20,835 nt of DNA from Promethearchaeota archaeon. GTDB lineage: Archaea > Asgardarchaeota > Lokiarchaeia > Sigyniarchaeales > SOKP01. A model generated the notes under the pieces. It saw only the letters and a program-made list of their open reading frames with translations, ran no database searches and was not told the origin of the DNA. The stretch covers positions 1 through 20,835 of the forward strand of contig SHMW01000076.1 in assembly GCA_008080735.1 (NCBI GenBank), in the 5' to 3' direction. This document shows positions 3,323-20,572 of the stretch, piece after piece. The translations under genes were made by a program, and so were the position numbers. Every line of letters begins with the position of its first letter. The first letter of the stretch is position 1.

Positions 3323-3736
3323 ATGGACAATTTAAGATTAAAAAGATATAAAAATAAAATTAATTACATCTTGGACAATATGGAGGATCTTCCATTAATT
3401 CCAGAGAATACCTTGGAGAAAAAAGGTATCTTTTATTCTCTCCAGACATCTATTGAATCCACCGTAGATTTGGTTGCTATGTTAGTAAAAGACCTATCTA
3501 TACCCGTAAAAGATGATTATACAAATATAAAAAAGATTATTGATTTAAGAAACATTGACCCTTCATTAGGAGAGAAACTGATAAAAGCCAATGGACTAAG
3601 AAATATTTTAGTAGATAGATATAATTCAATTGAAGACGAAATTATTTTGAATAGTGTTTCAGATATAAAAGATTTATTATATCAATGGTTAGACATAATT
3701 GAGGGATGCTTAATTGAGATTAAAAACGATGAGTAA
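3323..3736 (+). CDS. HepT-like (DUF86) HEPN ribonuclease toxin; catalytic His apparently replaced by Asp
   Basis: 137 aa; LQTSIES..DL and GLRNILVDRY resemble the DUF86 GxRNxLVHxY motif; overlaps a downstream minimal nucleotidyltransferase gene. Confidence 0.88.
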   Translation: MDNLRLKRYKNKINYILDNMEDLPLIPENTLEKKGIFYSLQTSIESTVDLVAMLVKDLSIPVKDDYTNIKKIIDLRNIDPSLGEKLIKANGLRNILVDRYNSIEDEIILNSVSDIKDLLYQWLDIIEGCLIEIKNDE

Positions 3737-4130
3737 AATTAAAAAAGATTTGAGAGAACTTAAAGGGAGATTTGATACAATAATATTTGGGTCTTATTTG
3801 GAAGATGCAATGAGACCAAGTTCGGATATAGATATTGGAATTATTACATACAAATCAAAGATGAATGAGAATATTGAAATTCAAAAGGAATTGCTTGGGA
3901 AGTTCCCCCTCATTTATGATATTAGAGTATTTGAGTTATTCCCAATAGATATCAAAATTCAAATTATAAAAAATTATGAAGTTCTTTTTGGGGATATCTT
4001 AGAAATATCAGAATATTTTTATATATTTAGAAAAAAATGGGATGATATAAAATATCGAATCTTAGAAAATCAATTTTCAAGTTTTCAAGAGAGATTGTCC
4101 CTTATGAAAAAGTATTCGAAATCAGAATGA
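3729..4130 (+). CDS. Minimal nucleotidyltransferase (MNT/MntA-like antitoxin)
   Basis: IFGSYLEDAMRPSSDIDI = GS-x10-DxD. ATG at 3729 overlaps the HEPN gene end by 8 nt and is a more likely start than TTG at 3714. Confidence 0.88.
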   Translation: MSKIKKDLRELKGRFDTIIFGSYLEDAMRPSSDIDIGIITYKSKMNENIEIQKELLGKFPLIYDIRVFELFPIDIKIQIIKNYEVLFGDILEISEYFYIFRKKWDDIKYRILENQFSSFQERLSLMKKYSKSE

Positions 4131-7479: not shown

Positions 7480-8808
7480 ATGAGTTCTAATATGTCGCAA
7501 GAAGTGAATGAAGATAAATTATATCCTTTATTTCTTAAAAAACTGAAAAATATTGAAAATAAGGAAATTCTCAATGGGAAAAAAAAACCTAAAGATAGTC
7601 AGGACTATCATAGAATAGTGATCAGTTTTGAGACCTTGGAAAACAGAGATACTTTTTTGTGTGAGAATGAAGATTTTTCGGTTTTAGATACCTTCCAATT
7701 AATTCCTTCAGTCATCTCGTTACAGCCCCTCCCAAAAATTAAGAATTTATCTAAGAATCCGCTTATAAGAAGGATTGAAGAAGATCAAGTGCTTCACCTA
7801 AATAATAATGATATTGGTAAGCCATTAGGTCTTAACCGCTTAAAGACGTCTCAATTCAATTTTACGGGAAAAAATGTAAATATTGGAATTATAGATACGA
7901 AAATTCAGAGTTATTATGAATCATTTTATCAGTCGAAGCTAAGAGGGCACTATAGAAATCAGACAGAAGGTTCCAAAAAAAATTATAGAATATCTGAAGA
8001 TATATCCCATGGCACACTCATAGCAAATATTCTCATCAACCAGCTTAAAAATAGGGATGAGATAAGACTTGGAATTGCTCCAGATGCGAATATTTATGAT
8101 CTCAGTATATCAAATAACCGAAGAAAGACTTATTTTTCGGACATTATAATGATTTTTGATAGGATTAGTGAGGATTACATACCATTAGATATTATCCTAA
8201 TTTCATTTTCCACTTCTGAACCTTCAGATGGGGAGGATATCTTATCAAACGCTTGCAATTTGCTGATCGAGCAACAGGGAATAATAATAGTTGCACCTGC
8301 CGGCAATATAGGTCCAAAACCAGCATCCATTACTAGCCCTGGAGCTGCATCAAAAGTTATTACTGTGGGTAGTCTTGAAGAGAACGGGAAAATTTCCAAG
8401 TTTTCAGCAAGAGGGCCAACCTTGTCTGGGATTTCTAAGCCAGATATATATTTTCCAGGGGCAAAAATTGGGATAAAATTAGAAAGGAATCATACATTTA
8501 ACGTCTCTGGGACCAGTATTGCGGCTGCAATCGCAACTGGAATAATTGCACTGATAAAAGAATATGATAGAGGGCTAGAAACCGAGGAGATTAAAGAAAT
8601 ATTCAGTAAATACCAGAGAGATTATAGTAGAGGAATAGATCTTCCACGGCTTTTTAATAATTACTGCATATATTCACCCAAACTAGTTCCCTATAAATAT
8701 TTACTAAAGCGATCAATATGGATTTCTATTCAAATTATCATAATCCTTCTTTTGGTTTTTTTCTGGAAGGATATTTATAACCTTATTCGTATTATTTACG
8801 GTTTTTAA
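7480..8808 (+). CDS. S8 subtilisin-like serine peptidase with I9-like prodomain and C-terminal transmembrane helix
   Basis: Triad IGIIDT / SHGT / SGTSIAA, oxyanion PAGN, SITSPG, FSARGP, KPDI; hydrophobic tail IWISIQIIIILLLVFFW; GAGG just upstream of the ATG. Confidence 0.88.
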   Translation: MSSNMSQEVNEDKLYPLFLKKLKNIENKEILNGKKKPKDSQDYHRIVISFETLENRDTFLCENEDFSVLDTFQLIPSVISLQPLPKIKNLSKNPLIRRIEEDQVLHLNNNDIGKPLGLNRLKTSQFNFTGKNVNIGIIDTKIQSYYESFYQSKLRGHYRNQTEGSKKNYRISEDISHGTLIANILINQLKNRDEIRLGIAPDANIYDLSISNNRRKTYFSDIIMIFDRISEDYIPLDIILISFSTSEPSDGEDILSNACNLLIEQQGIIIVAPAGNIGPKPASITSPGAASKVITVGSLEENGKISKFSARGPTLSGISKPDIYFPGAKIGIKLERNHTFNVSGTSIAAAIATGIIALIKEYDRGLETEEIKEIFSKYQRDYSRGIDLPRLFNNYCIYSPKLVPYKYLLKRSIWISIQIIIILLLVFFWKDIYNLIRIIYGF

Positions 8809-8841
8809 AATAATAGAATAAAATAAATCTGAAATTTTCTT

Positions 8842-10839
8842 TCACTTAATCACAGGAACGCTAAAATAAAACGTACTTCCTTTATCCTTACCTTCTGATT
8901 CAACTCCTATTTCGCCCTCATGCAATTCAATAATTTTTTTTGAGATATAAAGTCCAAGACCAGTTCCTTCCGTTCCGATATCCCACCCTTGCCCATATTT
9001 TTCTATTTTGCCAAATTCTCTAAAAATTGTCTCTTTTTCCTCTTTTGTGAGTCCGATACCCGTGTCAATTACGTATATTTTAATAAAATCAGAGGTTTTC
9101 TCAGAAGATATGGTGATATCTCCCTCGGGAGGGGAGTATTTAATCGCATTTATCAACAAATTTTCGATTACTTCTTTTATTCGTTTCGGTTCAAATAATG
9201 TTTTCAGTTCATTGTGAATATCCAGATGGATTGAATGTCTTCTTTCTTGTATTGCTCCCTTCATTTCAGTAAGTACCGTTTTTATAATATTGGCTAAGTT
9301 TCCAAATCTTTTTTCTAGTTTAATTTTTCCAGATTGAAGTTTTGAGGCTTTTAATATATCTTTTATCAAACTTTCCAATCTCTCGCTACCCTTTTTGATC
9401 TCATCCACGATTGCCTTCATTTCTTCATCCATTTTATGGCTATACAGTTCTGTGAGTAAATTAGAAAATCCCTTTATAGAAACCAAAGGGGTTTTTAATT
9501 CATGCGAAGTTCTTCTGAGTAATTCAGACTTTAGCTTATTTAATCTTTTTAATTCCTTTTCAGCTTTCTTTTTTTCAGTTAAATCGACTATAATAATCAA
9601 CGTTGCATCTTTATTTTTATATCTTATACTCGTTAAAGTGGTTTCTAACCATTTAATTTGCCCATTTTTTCTTTTAATTCTGGTGATATAATCAACATTA
9701 TTTTGTTTTTCGGGATGAATGTGGAATTCCTTGAAAATTTTTCTTAGTTTGATCATATCCTCTTCAGGAATGATTTCTGCAAGATCAAGATAGCTCCAAT
9801 TCTTAACCTCTTCATAGGGATACCCAACTAAATTCGCATAGGCATGATTTAGATATTGCATTTTTTGATTTTGAAAAATTGCAATTCCTATAGATGTTTG
9901 TTCTGCTATCGTCCTAAATTTTTCTTCTGATTCTTTTAATGCTTTTTCTCGTAGTTTTCGTTGAGTAATATCTAAGGTTAGTATAAGATCTGCTGTCTTC
10001 CCTTCATATATAACAGGTTTAGAAAAGATTTCACACCAATATACTTTTCCGCTTTTTTTAATCCCGCGAAATTCATAATTCTCTATATAATCGTTTTTTC
10101 CTTGTTGCTTTTTGATTGCTTGTTGCTTAACGAATTGCCTATCATCTGGATGTATAATTTTAAGATATTCTCCCGGAGCCCAATTTTCTACTTCTTCTCT
10201 TGAATATCCTGTGACTCTTAAAAATTCATCATTGAAATATAAAAATTTATCATCTTGAAGCATTGTGATACTAATAAATGATTGCTGGGCAATTGCTTTA
10301 AAAATTTCCTGAGATTCCTTTAACTTTTGCTGAGATTTTTTTCGCTCTGTTATATCATCCAGCAAGAATTGAATATATCGTTTACCTTTAATTTCATAAA
10401 TCGAAGTATATGCTTGAACCCATACCACACCTCCCTTAGATTGATAAATTGGAAATTCTAATTCTGAAGGCTCACCCGTATTAAGTAATTTTTCAAAAAA
10501 CCTATCATAAATCGGAATTAGTTGTTTATTTTTTTTATTAAAGCTCCAGATATCTCGATAATGTTTTCCGATCAAATCTTTAACCGTATGGATAGACATT
10601 AATTCATTTGCCGATTCATTGATATCAATTAATACTCCCTCAGAATTAAATAAAACTACGGTAAGTGGGGAATGTTTGAAAAGATGTTGATATTTTTTCT
10701 CTGTTTTAGATAACTCTTCCTTAACCTTTTGGTTAATTATATTATTAATTCTTGAAATAATAGAATCTGAATTAATGTTCTTTTCTAATAATTCTTCTAA
10801 TTCGTCTTTTTCTGATTTCGATAATGGATTGTTTGCCAT
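8842..10839 (-). CDS. Cytoplasmic sensor histidine kinase with three PAS domains
   Basis: Three PAS/PAC repeats ending DITERK, DITQRK and DLTEKK; H-box SHELKTPL, N-box NLLINAIKYS, DTGIG, GTGLGL. Start uncertain: ATG 10839 chosen, ORF open to 10893. Confidence 0.93.
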   Translation of the reverse strand: MANNPLSKSEKDELEELLEKNINSDSIISRINNIINQKVKEELSKTEKKYQHLFKHSPLTVVLFNSEGVLIDINESANELMSIHTVKDLIGKHYRDIWSFNKKNKQLIPIYDRFFEKLLNTGEPSELEFPIYQSKGGVVWVQAYTSIYEIKGKRYIQFLLDDITERKKSQQKLKESQEIFKAIAQQSFISITMLQDDKFLYFNDEFLRVTGYSREEVENWAPGEYLKIIHPDDRQFVKQQAIKKQQGKNDYIENYEFRGIKKSGKVYWCEIFSKPVIYEGKTADLILTLDITQRKLREKALKESEEKFRTIAEQTSIGIAIFQNQKMQYLNHAYANLVGYPYEEVKNWSYLDLAEIIPEEDMIKLRKIFKEFHIHPEKQNNVDYITRIKRKNGQIKWLETTLTSIRYKNKDATLIIIVDLTEKKKAEKELKRLNKLKSELLRRTSHELKTPLVSIKGFSNLLTELYSHKMDEEMKAIVDEIKKGSERLESLIKDILKASKLQSGKIKLEKRFGNLANIIKTVLTEMKGAIQERRHSIHLDIHNELKTLFEPKRIKEVIENLLINAIKYSPPEGDITISSEKTSDFIKIYVIDTGIGLTKEEKETIFREFGKIEKYGQGWDIGTEGTGLGLYISKKIIELHEGEIGVESEGKDKGSTFYFSVPVIK

Positions 10840-13508: not shown

Positions 13509-14303
13509 TTACATGAGAACGTTCTTAGAAAACGCATCTATAATAACATTACTAAGACATTCATAGAGTTCTTGCTCATAGAGACTACTTAAATGCTCTT
13601 TGTCGAAATTATAGATACTCGTGAGATGGATATCATATTCACAAGGAAAATCTATATTGCTTAGTTTTTGTTCCAACCAAACAATATTGCGATCGACTCG
13701 TTTGGATTTTTCTAAAAGAATTGGGTCTATTTTATGAAATAAAATCGTGATCTTCAAATCCTTGGGAAACAAGTTTTCATATTTTGCGGTAAAAATTTCG
13801 ACCAGATTAGTCAAATATTCCAAAGATTCATTATAGGAAGACTCGTCTGTAATATCAATAAAAAACATAATTTCATCCGTGTGGGCAAAATAATGACATG
13901 AATCGAAATATCTTTTTCTGTACTTCAATGCCCCTCCAAAATCCCAAATACAATACTTATAATTATTATATTCCATTTCTACTCTATTTATATATCTCGT
14001 GGGAATAAGGTTGGTCGATTCGGTTAAGTTTCGTGTTTGGAGAAGCTTTAGCATACTACTTTTCCCAGAATTATGCAAACCCAAAAAAATGAGTTTTCTA
14101 GTTTCGAGGTGCGAATGTGTGGTTATTTTGGAGATCATAATATGATAACATTGACAGCAATATAGCTCAATATGAGGACTTCTCCATACTTGTGTCAGCT
14201 GGTGCTTTGATCTCCCAATATTACTAGAAAAAAATTCATGAAATGATAATGGACGCTGGCATTCCCAGCATGTTCTTTTCTTAAAATTCTCTGAATTTTT
14301 CAC
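13509..14303 (-). CDS. Small GTPase (Rag/Gtr- or Arf-like) with N-terminal Cys-rich Zn-finger-like domain
   Basis: G1 GLHNSGKS, G2 IPT, G3 WDFGGA, G4 FHKID, G5 TSIY; N-terminal CWEC...YCCQC; GTG start. Confidence 0.88.
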   Translation of the reverse strand: MKNSENFKKRTCWECQRPLSFHEFFSSNIGRSKHQLTQVWRSPHIELYCCQCYHIMISKITTHSHLETRKLIFLGLHNSGKSSMLKLLQTRNLTESTNLIPTRYINRVEMEYNNYKYCIWDFGGALKYRKRYFDSCHYFAHTDEIMFFIDITDESSYNESLEYLTNLVEIFTAKYENLFPKDLKITILFHKIDPILLEKSKRVDRNIVWLEQKLSNIDFPCEYDIHLTSIYNFDKEHLSSLYEQELYECLSNVIIDAFSKNVLM

Positions 14304-15880: not shown

Positions 15881-16039
15881 TTTAAATCATCAAATCAAAT
15901 AGTAATTGTTGAAGAAATTTATATTTATTTAGAGTAAATTAATTTAAATTATAAAAGTGATGAATTCAAGACGAATGAAAAAGAATAAAAAAATCAACTT
16001 TTATTATTCTATTAAAGAATTGTTTTGATTCGAATTAAA

Positions 16040-17767
16040 ATGAATATACTAATTATTGCCATTGTAAGTGCGATTGCTCTGATCATCATTATACTATTAC
16101 TAAATAAATACTATTGGAATCGTTCGATCTCGAGAGTCGTGAAGAAATATTTTGCCGACGAGGAAAAGCAAGAGGTGATAGACAAATATAAGGAGATCAG
16201 CAAGATTGTGGAAGAAACGGAGAAGGAAATGGAAAAGTCGATTCAGCAAAAGACGGAACTTGTAAAATCGCAATTTAAAAAAGCGGAAAGAGAACTCATT
16301 AAGAAAGGTACCCAGCAATATACTAAATTCTCGTCAAGCTTACGCTCCGCGATGCCAGAAACGGAGGAGGAACGGAAGCAAGATATCGAGGACCTCAAAG
16401 GTGCAATATCACTCTTAGAATCACTTGATGAAGTGGCGGTAGAAGCCGCAAAAAAGAAAATCGATGTTGGATTAGGAATGTTCTATGATAAGATGTCCAG
16501 AAAGTTCAAAAGAATCATCGATGAGAAGAGTTTGGAACAGTTTGATTTTATTCCAGTACCACGATTAAAATATCACGCATTTCAAGAAATAAAAAACATT
16601 AAAGATGAAGATTTTCTGCCTATTTTGAATATCATGATTGAAACCAATTTACTCAAAGACATTATCGAGATTAATCCAGCACTTCATCTGATCAAATTCA
16701 CTGACGATGAGCTGGAATTAACGCGAACGGAAAAGGTCGTGCTCACGTTCGTCTATGAAGAGGAGAAACTCACCAAAAGAAAATTAGTGGAATTGACAGA
16801 ATGGGATACGAGCTATGCAGATAAAATCCTTGATGAATTATCTGCCAAGGGAATTATTGAACTTAATACTACAATTAACGTTGAGAGTTTCAATCCCCCT
16901 GAGGAAAGAAAAAAATGGAAGCAATTAATCAGGGATATCATCAAGCAAAATCAGCAAAAAGAGGAAGAAAAGTTTCAGAAATCGCTTCTTAGGAGACAAC
17001 AACTCCAAGAAAAATTAGCAAAATCAAAAGAAAAACCGAAAGCATTAGAAATTTCACAGAAAGAGCCCGAACAAAAAGAAATTGATGATGTGCCCGAGGA
17101 AATCAACTTTGGGAAAAAGCCGGATACCAAACCTCTTCCGGGAACAAAAATCGAAGATGAGCCAGAATTTGAAGAAAACATCCAAGACATTAAAGATAAA
17201 GACTCCTTAATAAGCGCAATGGAAGCATTAGATCAAGAGTTAAAAACGTCCAGACAAGAAAATCTAAAGGAGGAAAAGAATGAGGAGGAGGAAATATCCG
17301 ATCTTTCATTGGGTATCGGCGAGATGGGTGATGGTACACAAGATTTGGATGATTTGATCTCTAGTTTTATTCTAAATTATGATGAAAAATACTCTATGGT
17401 AAATGGGGGTTTTGTGCAGTTTGAAAAAATTAACGAATATATTCTTAAAAAAGATGAGCGAATTACCGGAGATATGGTCAGAACAGTCCTAAATGAGCTC
17501 AACTCTCTCCAGATGATTAATAGGATTATAGAAATCGGGGATACCACATTTTATGCTTTCAATAAACTGGAATTGAACGAGGAACAGAAGGATTTCATCC
17601 ATTTTCTCATCGATAAAAAACCAATGTCCAAACAAATGGTTCTTGAAGAACTTGAATGGGATGAGCAGAAAGTCTTACAAACAATGAAATCTCTACAAGA
17701 AAAAAATCTCCTTCGGTTGGAAAATGATAAGATACTGATCCCCGGAGCAAAGCAAAAAGAAGAATAA
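16040..17767 (+). CDS. Single-pass membrane protein with coiled coil and two EAP30 (Vps22/Vps36, ESCRT-II)-like winged-helix tandems
   Basis: N-terminal TM ILIIAIVSAIALIIIILLL. Two internal repeats each with ..IIEI..., LEL(T/N)..(E/Q)K, EL.EW(D)......L..L..K.(I/L); second repeat has the NGG hallmark and first has G.FY. ATG 16040 preferred over TTG 16025. Confidence 0.7.
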   Translation: MNILIIAIVSAIALIIIILLLNKYYWNRSISRVVKKYFADEEKQEVIDKYKEISKIVEETEKEMEKSIQQKTELVKSQFKKAERELIKKGTQQYTKFSSSLRSAMPETEEERKQDIEDLKGAISLLESLDEVAVEAAKKKIDVGLGMFYDKMSRKFKRIIDEKSLEQFDFIPVPRLKYHAFQEIKNIKDEDFLPILNIMIETNLLKDIIEINPALHLIKFTDDELELTRTEKVVLTFVYEEEKLTKRKLVELTEWDTSYADKILDELSAKGIIELNTTINVESFNPPEERKKWKQLIRDIIKQNQQKEEEKFQKSLLRRQQLQEKLAKSKEKPKALEISQKEPEQKEIDDVPEEINFGKKPDTKPLPGTKIEDEPEFEENIQDIKDKDSLISAMEALDQELKTSRQENLKEEKNEEEEISDLSLGIGEMGDGTQDLDDLISSFILNYDEKYSMVNGGFVQFEKINEYILKKDERITGDMVRTVLNELNSLQMINRIIEIGDTTFYAFNKLELNEEQKDFIHFLIDKKPMSKQMVLEELEWDEQKVLQTMKSLQEKNLLRLENDKILIPGAKQKEE

Positions 17768-17790: not shown

Positions 17791-19551
17791 TTAGACATAG
17801 TGTTTTTTTACGTATTTTTTTACTTTTTTTATTTCCTCAAGATATGTGTCTCTGTCTCCGAAGATATAAAATCTCACCTCTGGACCTGTACCTGATGGAC
17901 GGAAATATAATGTGGAGTCTTCACTTTTCAATTTATATATTTCGATGTTTTCGTTATTATCATATAAGGCTGTAATATGATATGTTTTCTCCCCAATCGC
18001 TATATCTTTCCCATCTTCCTTCTCGAAGTTCTCCATAATTGCTAACTTTTCCCGATCGGTCGCCTCTATAGTCTGATTTATTCCTTTGATGGACCAGTCA
18101 ATTGCATTTTTTATTATATACCCTCTACTAAGAAGCTCCGTCACCAATACTAACGCGGGAACGATATATTTATCTGCAATTAATGGGAGGGGTGTGCTAA
18201 ATTCATAGTTTTGGGTGTTTTTCTTCTTTTGAACATTCAATATGTTAAGTGTGTGTCCACCAGATTCTTCCCACATAACTACAATGAACCGAGCGTTTTC
18301 TAATCCTTCCGCCTCCATTTTTTTTATTATTTCATTCTTTAGAGGAGTGGGTTCTTTTATTTGAATTAATTGATTTCCATTTCCTTCCATATAGAGAATT
18401 GCGGAATCGATTTTAGATTGATCTACCTCCACACCGAATAGAAAATACAATATTACTCCAAGATGTTTATAACCCACGCCCGTCAGCACATTTAAAAAAC
18501 TGGTGTGATCGCCTCGTAAATCGGAAGGGATTGTGCGTACATTAATTATCTTTTGTTTAAACTCTTTTGCTAAAATATTATGAGTCGCAGAATAAATCTC
18601 ATTTGGGATATAATAAGAGAATTCCCCATTCTGCTTTACATAAAGCGCGATTCTGTCCCTATCCGCGTCGAGTAAAAGCGCAAGGTTTGAATCTGTTTCC
18701 TTCATAATTCGTTGAAGTTTTTGTTCTTTCACAACCTTTATTGGGTTTGGAGGGTTAAGATTTTCCTCAATTAAATGTACATTAGCACCGTAATCTCTAT
18801 AGAGTTTTATGATTCCTTCAGCTTTTCCTAAATAAGGCCATACGACAATATTCTCTCCTTCAAGGCTTCGAATATCGATGATCTTTGATAATAGTTCACG
18901 TACATAATCATTGTTCTTTTGAATCGCGTCGGTAAACTTTAGAGTATAATCTGTTTGCAGTTCTATCTGGTTTATCTTAAGAGCCTTTTTTGAAACATCT
19001 TTGAAAAGGTCTCCGGAAATGGGGATGGGATAATCTATATAGAACTTAATACCGTTCCAAGAGAGATCATTATGACTTGCGGTAAGCACGATAATGAGGT
19101 CTATTTCTTCATATAAAGCTACTGAGGCCGCCCCATAGGGAGATGATACTCTTGACTTCCCCGCTTCATCTTTTTGATGATAGATTTCATATCCTTGATA
19201 TGCGAAAATTTGAGATGAATAGTTCAGCAATATTTCGCTGCTCGGGCGATCATCAGTCACAATTAACACATTTAAGTTTTTATGCTCATCCATTTCCTTG
19301 AATTTCAAACTAATAGCCTTAAATACTCGGAGAAACAAGAATAATTTACCGCGTGTAAGTGAATAGGTAGTACCTTGACTTGATTTATCAATATCATAAA
19401 TTTGAATTCTCAATCCAGAAGTAGGGGCTACCATTGGATCAATAATACTTTTTTCCTCCTCGCTCAATTCTGGTAATTCGATAACCTTGATATTGCCGTC
19501 AATTTGTTTGAATTGAATACTCTCCACTTCAAAATCTATATTATCAATCAC
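17791..19551 (-). CDS. Alpha-D-phosphohexomutase (phosphoglucomutase/phosphomannomutase family)
   Basis: TSGLR, TASHN (phospho-Ser), NGIKF, DADRDR (metal loop), EESG (sugar loop), RPSGT (phosphate loop). Confidence 0.92.
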   Translation of the reverse strand: MIDNIDFEVESIQFKQIDGNIKVIELPELSEEEKSIIDPMVAPTSGLRIQIYDIDKSSQGTTYSLTRGKLFLFLRVFKAISLKFKEMDEHKNLNVLIVTDDRPSSEILLNYSSQIFAYQGYEIYHQKDEAGKSRVSSPYGAASVALYEEIDLIIVLTASHNDLSWNGIKFYIDYPIPISGDLFKDVSKKALKINQIELQTDYTLKFTDAIQKNNDYVRELLSKIIDIRSLEGENIVVWPYLGKAEGIIKLYRDYGANVHLIEENLNPPNPIKVVKEQKLQRIMKETDSNLALLLDADRDRIALYVKQNGEFSYYIPNEIYSATHNILAKEFKQKIINVRTIPSDLRGDHTSFLNVLTGVGYKHLGVILYFLFGVEVDQSKIDSAILYMEGNGNQLIQIKEPTPLKNEIIKKMEAEGLENARFIVVMWEESGGHTLNILNVQKKKNTQNYEFSTPLPLIADKYIVPALVLVTELLSRGYIIKNAIDWSIKGINQTIEATDREKLAIMENFEKEDGKDIAIGEKTYHITALYDNNENIEIYKLKSEDSTLYFRPSGTGPEVRFYIFGDRDTYLEEIKKVKKYVKKHYV

Positions 19552-19687: not shown

Positions 19688-20572
19688 TTAGGAATCATTA
19701 AATTTCTTTTTTTCTATTTGATCAATCGCATCATTAAGAATTGCATGAATTTTTTCCCGATAGTTTTCATTGATGGCTATCATCCCATGAGTGGTAATTT
19801 GTCTTCCACCTTCGGATAGAATTTTTTCACAAAATTCAGGAGTCAAACGATTTGGTAAATCTTGCTTATTTGCTACTCCGATCACGAATGTGTCTTTATA
19901 ATATTTATCGAGAAGGTCTTGGATTATGCTTTTTGTCGAGTTGACATTTTCAAATGTCGAGTCTGTTACCAAGAGCGTAATGTCAGTACCCTCTAGGAGG
20001 TTTTTCCACAGACTTCTAAACTGTGATTGACCTGCAAAATCCCAAAATATAACGTTTCTGTTAGTTTTTATCCCTTTTCCGTCATAGGAACTGATGTCCG
20101 CATTTACCGTTGGCACATATTCAAGATCAATTTCCTTACCACAAATGAGGTGGAGAAGTGTAGTCTTTCCAACTCCGCCAAATCCAATAATACTCACTTT
20201 AATTGACCCCAAAATGATATTGTCTAAATCCTTCTCAAAGTCTAGAAAAAGCGATCGGTTTCCTGCCCAGCTCCCATCCTCGATCATCTCTCCGTATTTC
20301 TCTACAAATCTGGCTCTAATTGAGCTTATTTTAGTGTTGATTACCGCATCTTCTTCTTCTAAATCCGTACACACGACAATGATAATATTATTAATAATTG
20401 TATAATAATATTTGAAATCTTCAGTTGCCGTGCTCTTTATATCGGATTGGCTTATTTCTTTAATAAACCCAGAAAAGGCACTTAAAAAGCCAGCTAATAG
20501 ATCTCGATCTATCTCGGAATCACTATAATTTCTAAATACTAAGGATTTACCGTCCTTACTGAGGACATTCAC
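19688..20572 (-). CDS. Longin-domain / small GTPase (Arf/Rab-like) fusion; true start possibly 20584
   Basis: N-terminal ~120 aa with longin pattern (G..L..RNY, LLAGFLSAFSGF..E, three beta strands, F...Y, F..F...LD); G1 GFGGVGKTT, G2 YVPT, G3 WDFAGQ, G4 ANKQD. Confidence 0.9.
   Translation of the reverse strand: MNVLSKDGKSLVFRNYSDSEIDRDLLAGFLSAFSGFIKEISQSDIKSTATEDFKYYYTIINNIIIVVCTDLEEEDAVINTKISSIRARFVEKYGEMIEDGSWAGNRSLFLDFEKDLDNIILGSIKVSIIGFGGVGKTTLLHLICGKEIDLEYVPTVNADISSYDGKGIKTNRNVIFWDFAGQSQFRSLWKNLLEGTDITLLVTDSTFENVNSTKSIIQDLLDKYYKDTFVIGVANKQDLPNRLTPEFCEKILSEGGRQITTHGMIAINENYREKIHAILNDAIDQIEKKKFNDS

Follow-up and report, generated by a model that had tools for sequence, protein, structure and literature searches.

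A membrane-anchored Lokiarchaeial protein with two Vps22/EAP30-type modules

The window analysed here is a 20,835-nucleotide stretch of DNA from Promethearchaeota archaeon (assembly GCA_008080735.1, contig SHMW01000076.1; G+C ~34%). We focused on one of its genes, at 16040..17767 on the plus strand, whose product we consider, with high confidence, to be a conserved Lokiarchaeial type-II-like membrane protein. It carries a cytoplasmic stalk, two modules of the Vps22/EAP30 type and a disordered, charged linker, and its modules go back to one intragenic duplication in the ancestor of the family, after the split from the canonical Asgard Vps22-like protein. [quoted passage not shown]

The gene is complete and encodes a transmembrane (TM) segment, a coiled coil and the two Vps22-like modules, as judged from the list of open reading frames (ORFs), the translation and full-length homologs of 34-92% identity. 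It occupies a single ORF at 16025-17767 (+), within which the true start codon, an ATG, lies at 16040, so that 575 residues and a stop codon are encoded. The closest homolog in the databases is 92% identical, is likewise 575 residues long and has an N-terminus that begins alike. The nearest database proteins all derive from metagenome-assembled genomes (MAGs) of Lokiarchaeia/Promethearchaeota; every one of them is named "hypothetical protein", and no NCBIfam family model matches the 575-residue protein.

Two Vps22/EAP30-type modules in one chain

The internal repeat emerged from direct comparison of the two halves of the protein. BLASTP aligned module 1 with module 2 at an E value of 2e-5 (22% identity over 116 residues), and hhalign, run on alignments of 46 sequences, matched them with 97.6% probability (E 3e-12, 129 columns). 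Judged from these alignments, the repeat is well beyond chance and the two modules are homologous. The initial annotation, made from the sequence of the window, had placed two repeats at 16469-16870 and 17345-17745; these correspond to residues 144-277 and 436-569, and the strings it quoted are indeed present there. It had also assigned both repeats to the EAP30 type, an assignment on which structure comparison, profile-profile comparison and an exhaustive sequence search agree.

A full-length AlphaFold2 (AF2) model, built with the 46-sequence alignment, had a mean predicted local distance difference test (pLDDT) score of 74, with both modules at ~88-90, and a predicted template modelling (pTM) score of 0.37. 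Structure comparison of the models revealed the Vps22 topology in both modules, with one helix leading into two adjacent winged helices. In Foldseek searches with the full-length model, the claimed likeness to ESCRT-II held well: SNF8/Vps22 chains came out on top, with E values of 8e-6 to 6e-5, followed by the next family at 2e-3 and by Vps36 chains at 1.7e-2. Other proteins with comparable layouts were considered and rejected. A DDRGK1/UFL1-like reading (TM segment, charged helix and winged helix) reached a Foldseek E value of ~0.14, as against 8e-6 for Vps22, and the tandem winged helices of KITE/ScpB, Nse1/3, SelB and RNA polymerase III reached 2e-3 to 8e-2, were not at the top by Z score and had no sequence link.

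Comparison of the individual modules gave the same picture. For module 2, VIA-align ranked SNF8 (2zme_A, Z 13.6, 149 aligned residues, root-mean-square deviation (rmsd) 6.0) and yeast Vps22 (1u5t_A, Z 13.2, 145 aligned, rmsd 4.5) highest, and the remaining rows, all with Z <=10, each covered a single winged helix. Module 1 was folded separately as residues 105-300 (pLDDT 85, pTM 0.71) and compared with 48,161 PDB representatives. Only two chains had Z >=8, namely yeast Vps22 (1w7p_A, Z 11.1, 141 aligned, rmsd 3.6) and human SNF8 (3cuq_A, Z 10.8, 156 aligned, rmsd 4.2), and the next chain followed at Z 7.3. Similarly, SNF8/EAP30 clusters were the top matches of both modules in the ESM Atlas, with a best TM-score of 0.57 for module 1.

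The sequence relationship is more distant. Positions 7-215 (of 219) of the Pfam EAP30 model (PF04157) aligned with residues 61-273 at 20.5 bits (E 5.8e-4), under the cut-off of 26.8 bits, which makes the protein a divergent EAP30 homolog and not a member by the Pfam threshold. At E <=0.01, EAP30 was detected in one of 46 close family members and in six of 27 distant two-module members. Thus, the EAP30 relationship that the initial annotation had proposed to check by profile fell short of the Pfam cut-off, but was borne out by hhalign against 28 Lokiarchaeial Vps22-like proteins (all PF04157), which gave 94% probability for module 2 (E 9.7e-8) and 82% for module 1 (E 1.1e-5).

Searching the PDB sequences with the family profile again returned human SNF8 as the top match, at an E value of 0.033 with the full-length profile and 0.0023 with module 2 alone. 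Of the motifs that the initial annotation had given as hallmarks of EAP30 proteins, two can be aligned to the human SNF8 sequence: NGGf falls on NGGL, and LxW...L..LQ..G on LKWETERARQVLEHLLKEGL. When 1.84 billion protein representatives were searched with the module 2 profile, 88 proteins were found; 18 of the weaker matches, including 17 that do not belong to the two-module set, were scanned with Pfam, and ten proved to be EAP30 proteins (best 1.3e-49). Within the source genome, the second-best match of this profile was the canonical Vps22-like gene. Comparison of the full-length profile with the canonical Vps22 profile aligned only the winged-helix region, and the N-terminal coiled coil showed no similarity to the SB-like N-terminus that the canonical protein has. 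By predicted fold and by profile homology, the modules clearly belong to the EAP30 superfamily.

Protein anatomy and family history

The protein begins with a predicted N-terminal TM anchor at residues 2-22 (16043..16105, plus strand, as are all features of the gene), followed by basic juxtamembrane residues, as indicated by hydropathy, charge and homologs. The mean Kyte-Doolittle value over 19-residue windows reaches 3.6, the net charge of residues 25-40 is +3, and hydropathy over the whole 575-residue protein showed no second hydrophobic segment. Because K/R residues follow this lone TM helix, the bulk of the protein is expected to be cytoplasmic. A cleavable signal peptide was considered and rejected, as a basic n-region is absent, the hydrophobic run extends over 21 residues and the basic residues come after it. 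Of 46 homologs, 35 have a predicted TM helix, and a start-codon miscall accounts for at least one of the "TM-less" entries: upstream of P0011, at L004:7940-8001, an in-frame ATG restores the TM sequence MILQVLGITFLTVFYLSLTSIF, the database entry lacking the helix because a downstream start was called. Further "TM-less" entries of the family may be similar miscalls.

The anchor is followed by a helical, coiled-coil stalk at residues 23-139 (16106..16456), delineated by AF2 helices at 40-76, 81-102 and 109-138, by conservation and by the Pfam EAP30 alignment, which starts at residue 61. It contains the conserved helix LRSAMPxTEEExxQDIxxLKxAISxLESLD (residues 100-130, nucleotides 16337-16429). 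Module 1, delimited by structure and profiles, spans residues 140-285 (16457..16894) and is composed of a helix (143-162), winged helix 1 (166-222) and winged helix 2 (223-285). Next comes a long basic helix at residues 286-331 (16895..17032), modelled by AF2 at 287-331 with pLDDT 83-91 and a net charge of +6. It opens with the conserved FGxxEERxKW, in which W293 is invariant and E289 and R290 are nearly so.

A disordered acidic linker occupies residues 332-386 (17033..17197). It is variable except for a conserved short linear motif, (I/V)KFxxKPx(V/T)KxLP, at residues 355-367 (nucleotides 17102-17140), which its sequence conservation marks as a candidate docking or autoregulatory site. The linker gives way to the helix IKDKDxLxxAMEALD at residues 387-419 and an acidic low-complexity spacer at 420-434 (together 17198..17341; AF2 helix and conservation). 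This helix ahead of module 2 mirrors the one ahead of module 1, and its motif parallels residues 114-130 (DKDxLxxAMEALD and QDIxxLKxAISxLESLD, respectively). Module 2, again delimited by structure and profiles, spans residues 435-570 (17342..17749), with a helix at 436-455, winged helix 1 at 457-508, winged helix 2 at 509-570 and an invariant PG..Q at its C-terminal end. Each of the four winged helices is acidic, the isoelectric points (pI) being 4.4-5.2 and the net charges -2 to -7. The membrane anchor and the charged linker between the repeats had both been called in the initial annotation; the former is borne out by the hydropathy and the K/R residues that follow, and the latter by its net charge and by pLDDT values below 50 at residues 332-387 and 409-434 of the full-length model.

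To place the modules, we computed a maximum-likelihood tree of both modules, canonical Lokiarchaeial Vps22-like proteins and other EAP30 matches, with Vps25 as the outgroup (70 rows, 144 columns; support as ultrafast bootstrap/Shimodaira-Hasegawa-like approximate likelihood ratio test (SH-aLRT)). Its clades should be read with two caveats, a short alignment of divergent sequences and a bootstrap that was still short of full convergence (correlation 0.979). Module 1 formed one clade (100/98) and module 2 another (98/80), the two grouped together (98/92), and the canonical Vps22 clade (100/99) lay outside them. The sub-clades of module 1 and module 2 mirror one another, which, together with the clade supports, points to one intragenic duplication in the family ancestor, after the split from canonical Vps22. 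Here the initial annotation, which had cast the modules as possible counterparts of Vps22 and Vps36, did not hold: the modules are each other's closest relatives and so reflect an independent intragenic duplication. In a quick tree, two longer single-module EAP30-like proteins, P0248 (378 residues) and P0256 (462 residues), adjoined the double-module family with weak support, at an unresolved fork (SH-aLRT 83); they may be its closest single-module relatives.

We then surveyed the distribution of the architecture with one TM segment and two EAP30 modules by counting strong full-length matches in 301 Asgard genomes. Strong matches were found in 28 of 69 genomes of the window's own taxonomic family (the source genome included) and in six of seven genomes of the sister family of the same order. 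The other 41 of the 69 own-family genomes sampled, including all 22 of one genus and several that are ~100% complete, had no strong match. Elsewhere among the 301 genomes only weak matches, to ORFs of ~240 residues, were obtained. Among the sampled genomes, the double-module family is thus confined to one Lokiarchaeial order. Its distant members are 520-770 residues long, and both modules were present in all 27 tested. Close relatives of the gene also occur in closed Lokiarchaeial genomes, for example that of Ca. Harpocratesius repetitus. In some related genomes, two paralogous copies of the gene lie in tandem (G282:C211:36380-38122 and 38174-39850; L006:6186-7931 and 8001-9683). In NCBI, members P0200, P0205, P0210, P0037 and P0045 are labelled Hodarchaeota, Sigynarchaeota and even Bathyarchaeota; since strong genome-wide matches occur in one Lokiarchaeial order only, part of this MAG labelling is probably in error.

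A possible membrane-resident platform and competing explanations

According to the ESCRT-II passages of Hatano 2022 (PMC9192718), Asgard genomes hold a single Vps22/36-like gene whose product homodimerises in place of the Vps22:Vps36 stalk. Self-association of Asgard Vps22 is reported there from size-exclusion chromatography with multi-angle light scattering, cross-linking and yeast two-hybrid assays, and two-hybrid contacts were seen between Vps25 and ESCRT-IIIB for Asgard proteins and between Vps20 and Vps22 in the fission-yeast control set. We tentatively propose that the double-Vps22 protein might act as a permanently membrane-resident ESCRT-II-like platform, a reading that we regard as plausible if not quite probable. 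Two Vps22-like modules in one chain, tied to the membrane on its cytoplasmic side, would supply a stalk resembling Vps22:Vps36. Through their acidic winged helices they would dock other proteins, namely Vps25, an ESCRT-III subunit without an intermediary, or both, and ESCRT-III would assemble at the membrane with no need for ESCRT-I or for recruitment that depends on ubiquitin. Alternatively, each module could dock a separate partner (Vps25, ESCRT-III or canonical Vps22), and the linker motif could provide an additional docking or autoregulatory site. The more far-reaching version is that Lokiarchaeia hold a second, constitutively membrane-anchored ESCRT-II, a single chain that owes both halves of its stalk to the intragenic duplication, is thereby independently convergent with the asymmetric two-subunit stalk of eukaryotes, and recruits Vps25/ESCRT-III to the cell membrane without ESCRT-I or ubiquitin. 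This we consider unlikely; if true, a second, membrane-anchored ESCRT-II could serve, for example, protrusion, vesicle or membrane-repair events.

Several observations weigh against such a platform. With a pTM of 0.37, the full-length model contains no confident packing of the modules against each other. The modules are highly diverged, being ~20% identical to canonical Vps22, so that the partner-binding surfaces need not be retained, and the protein stays under the Pfam EAP30 cut-off, with no EAP30 in the hmmscan output. The gene is dispensable, as its patchy distribution among the own-family genomes indicates. Moreover, Pfam scans of all large ORFs found no ESCRT gene in the window, as the initial annotation had stated, and none was found in six homologous contexts; linkage of ESCRT-II genes to those for ESCRT-I, ESCRT-III or Vps4 is the usual Asgard arrangement, unlike that of the double-Vps22 gene. 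A complex prediction for residues 140-575 with residues 105-296 of the source genome's Vps25 scored 0.01 and 0.00 (mark 0.32), a result that speaks neither for nor against binding.

The source genome has its ESCRT genes elsewhere. Its canonical locus, on contig C75, comprises Vps22-like (EAP30), Vps25 and Vps4 genes. The Vps22-like gene (G000:C75, L001:1498-2223) encodes 241 residues and matches EAP30 at 41.7 bits, Vps25 lies at L001:2270-3160 on the minus strand, and Snf7-family genes are found on contigs C112 and C36. As the canonical Vps22-like gene is retained on C75, the window gene is an extra paralog. Such a paralog may have left the ESCRT machinery altogether and been exapted as a scaffold for another cytoplasmic partner, such as a small GTPase/regulator, a ubiquitin-like system or an enzyme complex, which we consider possible but somewhat doubtful. 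This would agree with the absence of ESCRT genes from its vicinity, the patchy distribution of a dispensable gene, the strong divergence of the modules from canonical Vps22 and the presence of conserved motifs of the family's own that canonical Vps22 does not have.

The genomic neighbourhood can also be read in this direction. The double-Vps22 gene forms a single transcription unit, divergent from an acyl-CoA dehydrogenase gene and convergent with a PGM-superfamily gene. The latter (17791-19551, minus strand) encodes 586 residues of a divergent type, at 67.6 bits versus the 439-bit cut-off for archaeal GlmM. It forms a co-directional pair with an Arf-like GTPase gene (19688-20572, minus strand) that encodes 294 residues, of which ~120 are an N-terminal extension. 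The order acyl-CoA dehydrogenase, double-Vps22, PGM-like, Arf-like is kept around homologs of 40-46% identity, and the PGM-like/Arf-like pair lies within 0-5 kb of the double-Vps22 gene in L004, L005, L006, L007 and L009; even in two rearranged contexts of distant members, it is still 3-5 kb off. This recurrent proximity would fit an exapted scaffold. However, these relatives conserve gene order over a large block that takes in this neighbourhood, which says little about function, so the link to the GTPase is only a lead, and the gene is convergent with or apart from the pair, not in the same operon. The retention of a complete Vps22 module, twice and throughout the family, fits conserved ESCRT-II-type interactions equally well.

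The protein could also serve as an anchor in trans, with one or both modules heterodimerising with the soluble canonical Vps22-like protein through the Vps22-Vps22 interface and so tethering Vps22 and Vps25. The self-association of Asgard Vps22 reported in the same passages (PMC9192718), the homology of the modules to the canonical protein and the flexible linker of 150 residues, which would let each module engage a separate partner, are in line with this. The dimerisation surfaces have been mapped in Heimdall Vps22, but the modules are only ~20% identical to canonical Vps22. We judge such pairing decidedly unlikely.

Finally, a membrane-bound winged-helix DNA-binder of the MarR/TrmB type, either a tethered transcription regulator or a chromosome-membrane tether, is very improbable. 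The initial annotation had set these families against EAP30, and in single-sequence Pfam searches they did come out ahead on one winged helix of 50 residues: MarR_2 scored 28.5 bits (cut-off 27) on residues 227-275, winged helix 2 of module 1, and TrmB 22.6 bits, below its cut-off. Across the family, TrmB matched 15 of 46 members at E <0.1 and MarR_2 five of 46, and single winged helices superpose on MarR-family repressors with an rmsd of 1.1-1.3 Å over ~57 residues. Yet the fold that these matches span is common to the whole helix-turn-helix (HTH) clan, EAP30 included, and the order was reversed for whole modules, profiles and structures: whole modules fit Vps22 far better than any DNA-binding protein in Foldseek, VIA-align and the PDB comparison, and EAP30 proteins were the nearest outsiders in the exhaustive sequence search. 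Winged HTH domains that read DNA are not typically acidic like these, and the acidity of all four winged helices argues against a DNA-reading regulator. The protein, with its 575 residues, TM anchor and tandem winged helices, also differs from a small, soluble, dimeric, basic regulator.

Relation to known systems and surrounding genes

The nearest relative of the double-Vps22 protein is the Asgard Vps22/36-like protein (PF04157; asCOG cog.002769, Makarova 2024), its closest paralog in the genome, which shares the homologous module of a helix and two winged helices and occurs in the same phylum. The canonical protein is soluble, has ~240 residues, one module and an SB-like N-terminus, is encoded next to Vps25/Vps4 and scores above the Pfam cut-off. 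In contrast, the window protein combines two modules with a coiled coil and a TM anchor, is encoded at another locus and falls into a separate clade that, among the genomes sampled, is confined to one Lokiarchaeial order.

The eukaryotic ESCRT-II stalk, Vps22(SNF8/EAP30):Vps36 (1u5t, 1w7p, 2zme, 3cuq), contains the best structural match of both modules, Vps22/SNF8 (Z 10.8-13.6). The NGG and LxW motifs align, and there are two Vps22-type modules per unit, as in the heterodimer. The eukaryotic stalk, however, consists of two separate soluble chains recruited by the GLUE domain of Vps36 and by ESCRT-I, whereas the window protein is a single TM-anchored chain that lacks GLUE, PH and zinc-finger domains. 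Its duplication is intragenic and independent of any split between separate EAP30 genes, and Vps36 chains match it weakly.

Two systems provide analogies at the level of mechanism. In chloroplasts, VIPP1, which belongs to the ESCRT-III superfamily, is bound by the membrane protein VIA1, whose winged helix resembles that of Snf8 (10.1101/2023.10.10.561251). This integral chloroplast/cyanobacterial membrane protein exposes its ESCRT-II-like winged helix to a polymer of the ESCRT-III superfamily and is a precedent for the mechanism proposed above; with three TM helices, a single winged-helix region and a different lineage, it is an analog and not a member of the family. The N-terminal domain of CHMP7, compared here by description only (10.1101/049221 and, in part, general background), likewise places ESCRT-II-like tandem winged helices on a membrane, that of the endoplasmic reticulum/nuclear envelope, and seeds ESCRT-III without ESCRT-I. 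It differs in that its module is Vps25-like and fused to an ESCRT-III domain, and in being peripheral, not TM-anchored, and eukaryote-specific.

The architectures covered in the ESCRT survey of Makarova 2024 include Vps22+SB, Vps25 variants and other fusions. A TM segment combined with two Vps22 modules is not described in the ESCRT-II passages of Hatano 2022, Makarova 2024 or a 2026 structural-clustering preprint. Accessions and locus tags of six family members were not found in the searchable full text of the literature, and family accessions are absent from the supplementary files of Makarova 2024 mBio. Within the EAP30 superfamily, the double-Vps22 protein represents a new subfamily with a new architecture, for which no published description was found in the searchable literature.

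The separation of Vps22 from Vps36 is considered an innovation of eukaryotes, and Asgard ESCRT-II, in the account of Hatano 2022's ESCRT-II passages (PMC9192718), is a soluble Vps22/36-like homodimer with Vps25. In at least one Lokiarchaeial order, the Vps22 module had already been doubled inside a single gene and attached to the membrane. If the protein still contacts Vps25/ESCRT-III, it would represent a minimal ESCRT-I-independent route to seed ESCRT-III on a membrane, as well as a tractable reagent for reconstitution, with a cytoplasmic domain that could be tethered to liposomes. If it makes no such contact, it would exemplify the exaptation of an ESCRT-II module for some other task close to the membrane. 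In both cases, the answer is relevant to the diversification of eukaryote-like trafficking components before eukaryotes.

A scan for promoters and terminators at the double-Vps22 gene gave nothing above shuffled expectation; as the consensus used is bacterial, this result is uninformative for an archaeal host. The other genes of the window include Arf/Rag-type small GTPases, a PAS histidine kinase and an ERCC4 nuclease, among others. One of the GTPases, at 13509-14303 on the minus strand, is Gtr1/RagA-like (Pfam Gtr1_RagA, 8.7e-18) and has an N-terminal extension of ~65 residues. At 3323-4130 on the plus strand, overlapping genes for a HepT-like RNase and a nucleotidyltransferase (MNT) form a typical HEPN/MNT toxin-antitoxin pair.

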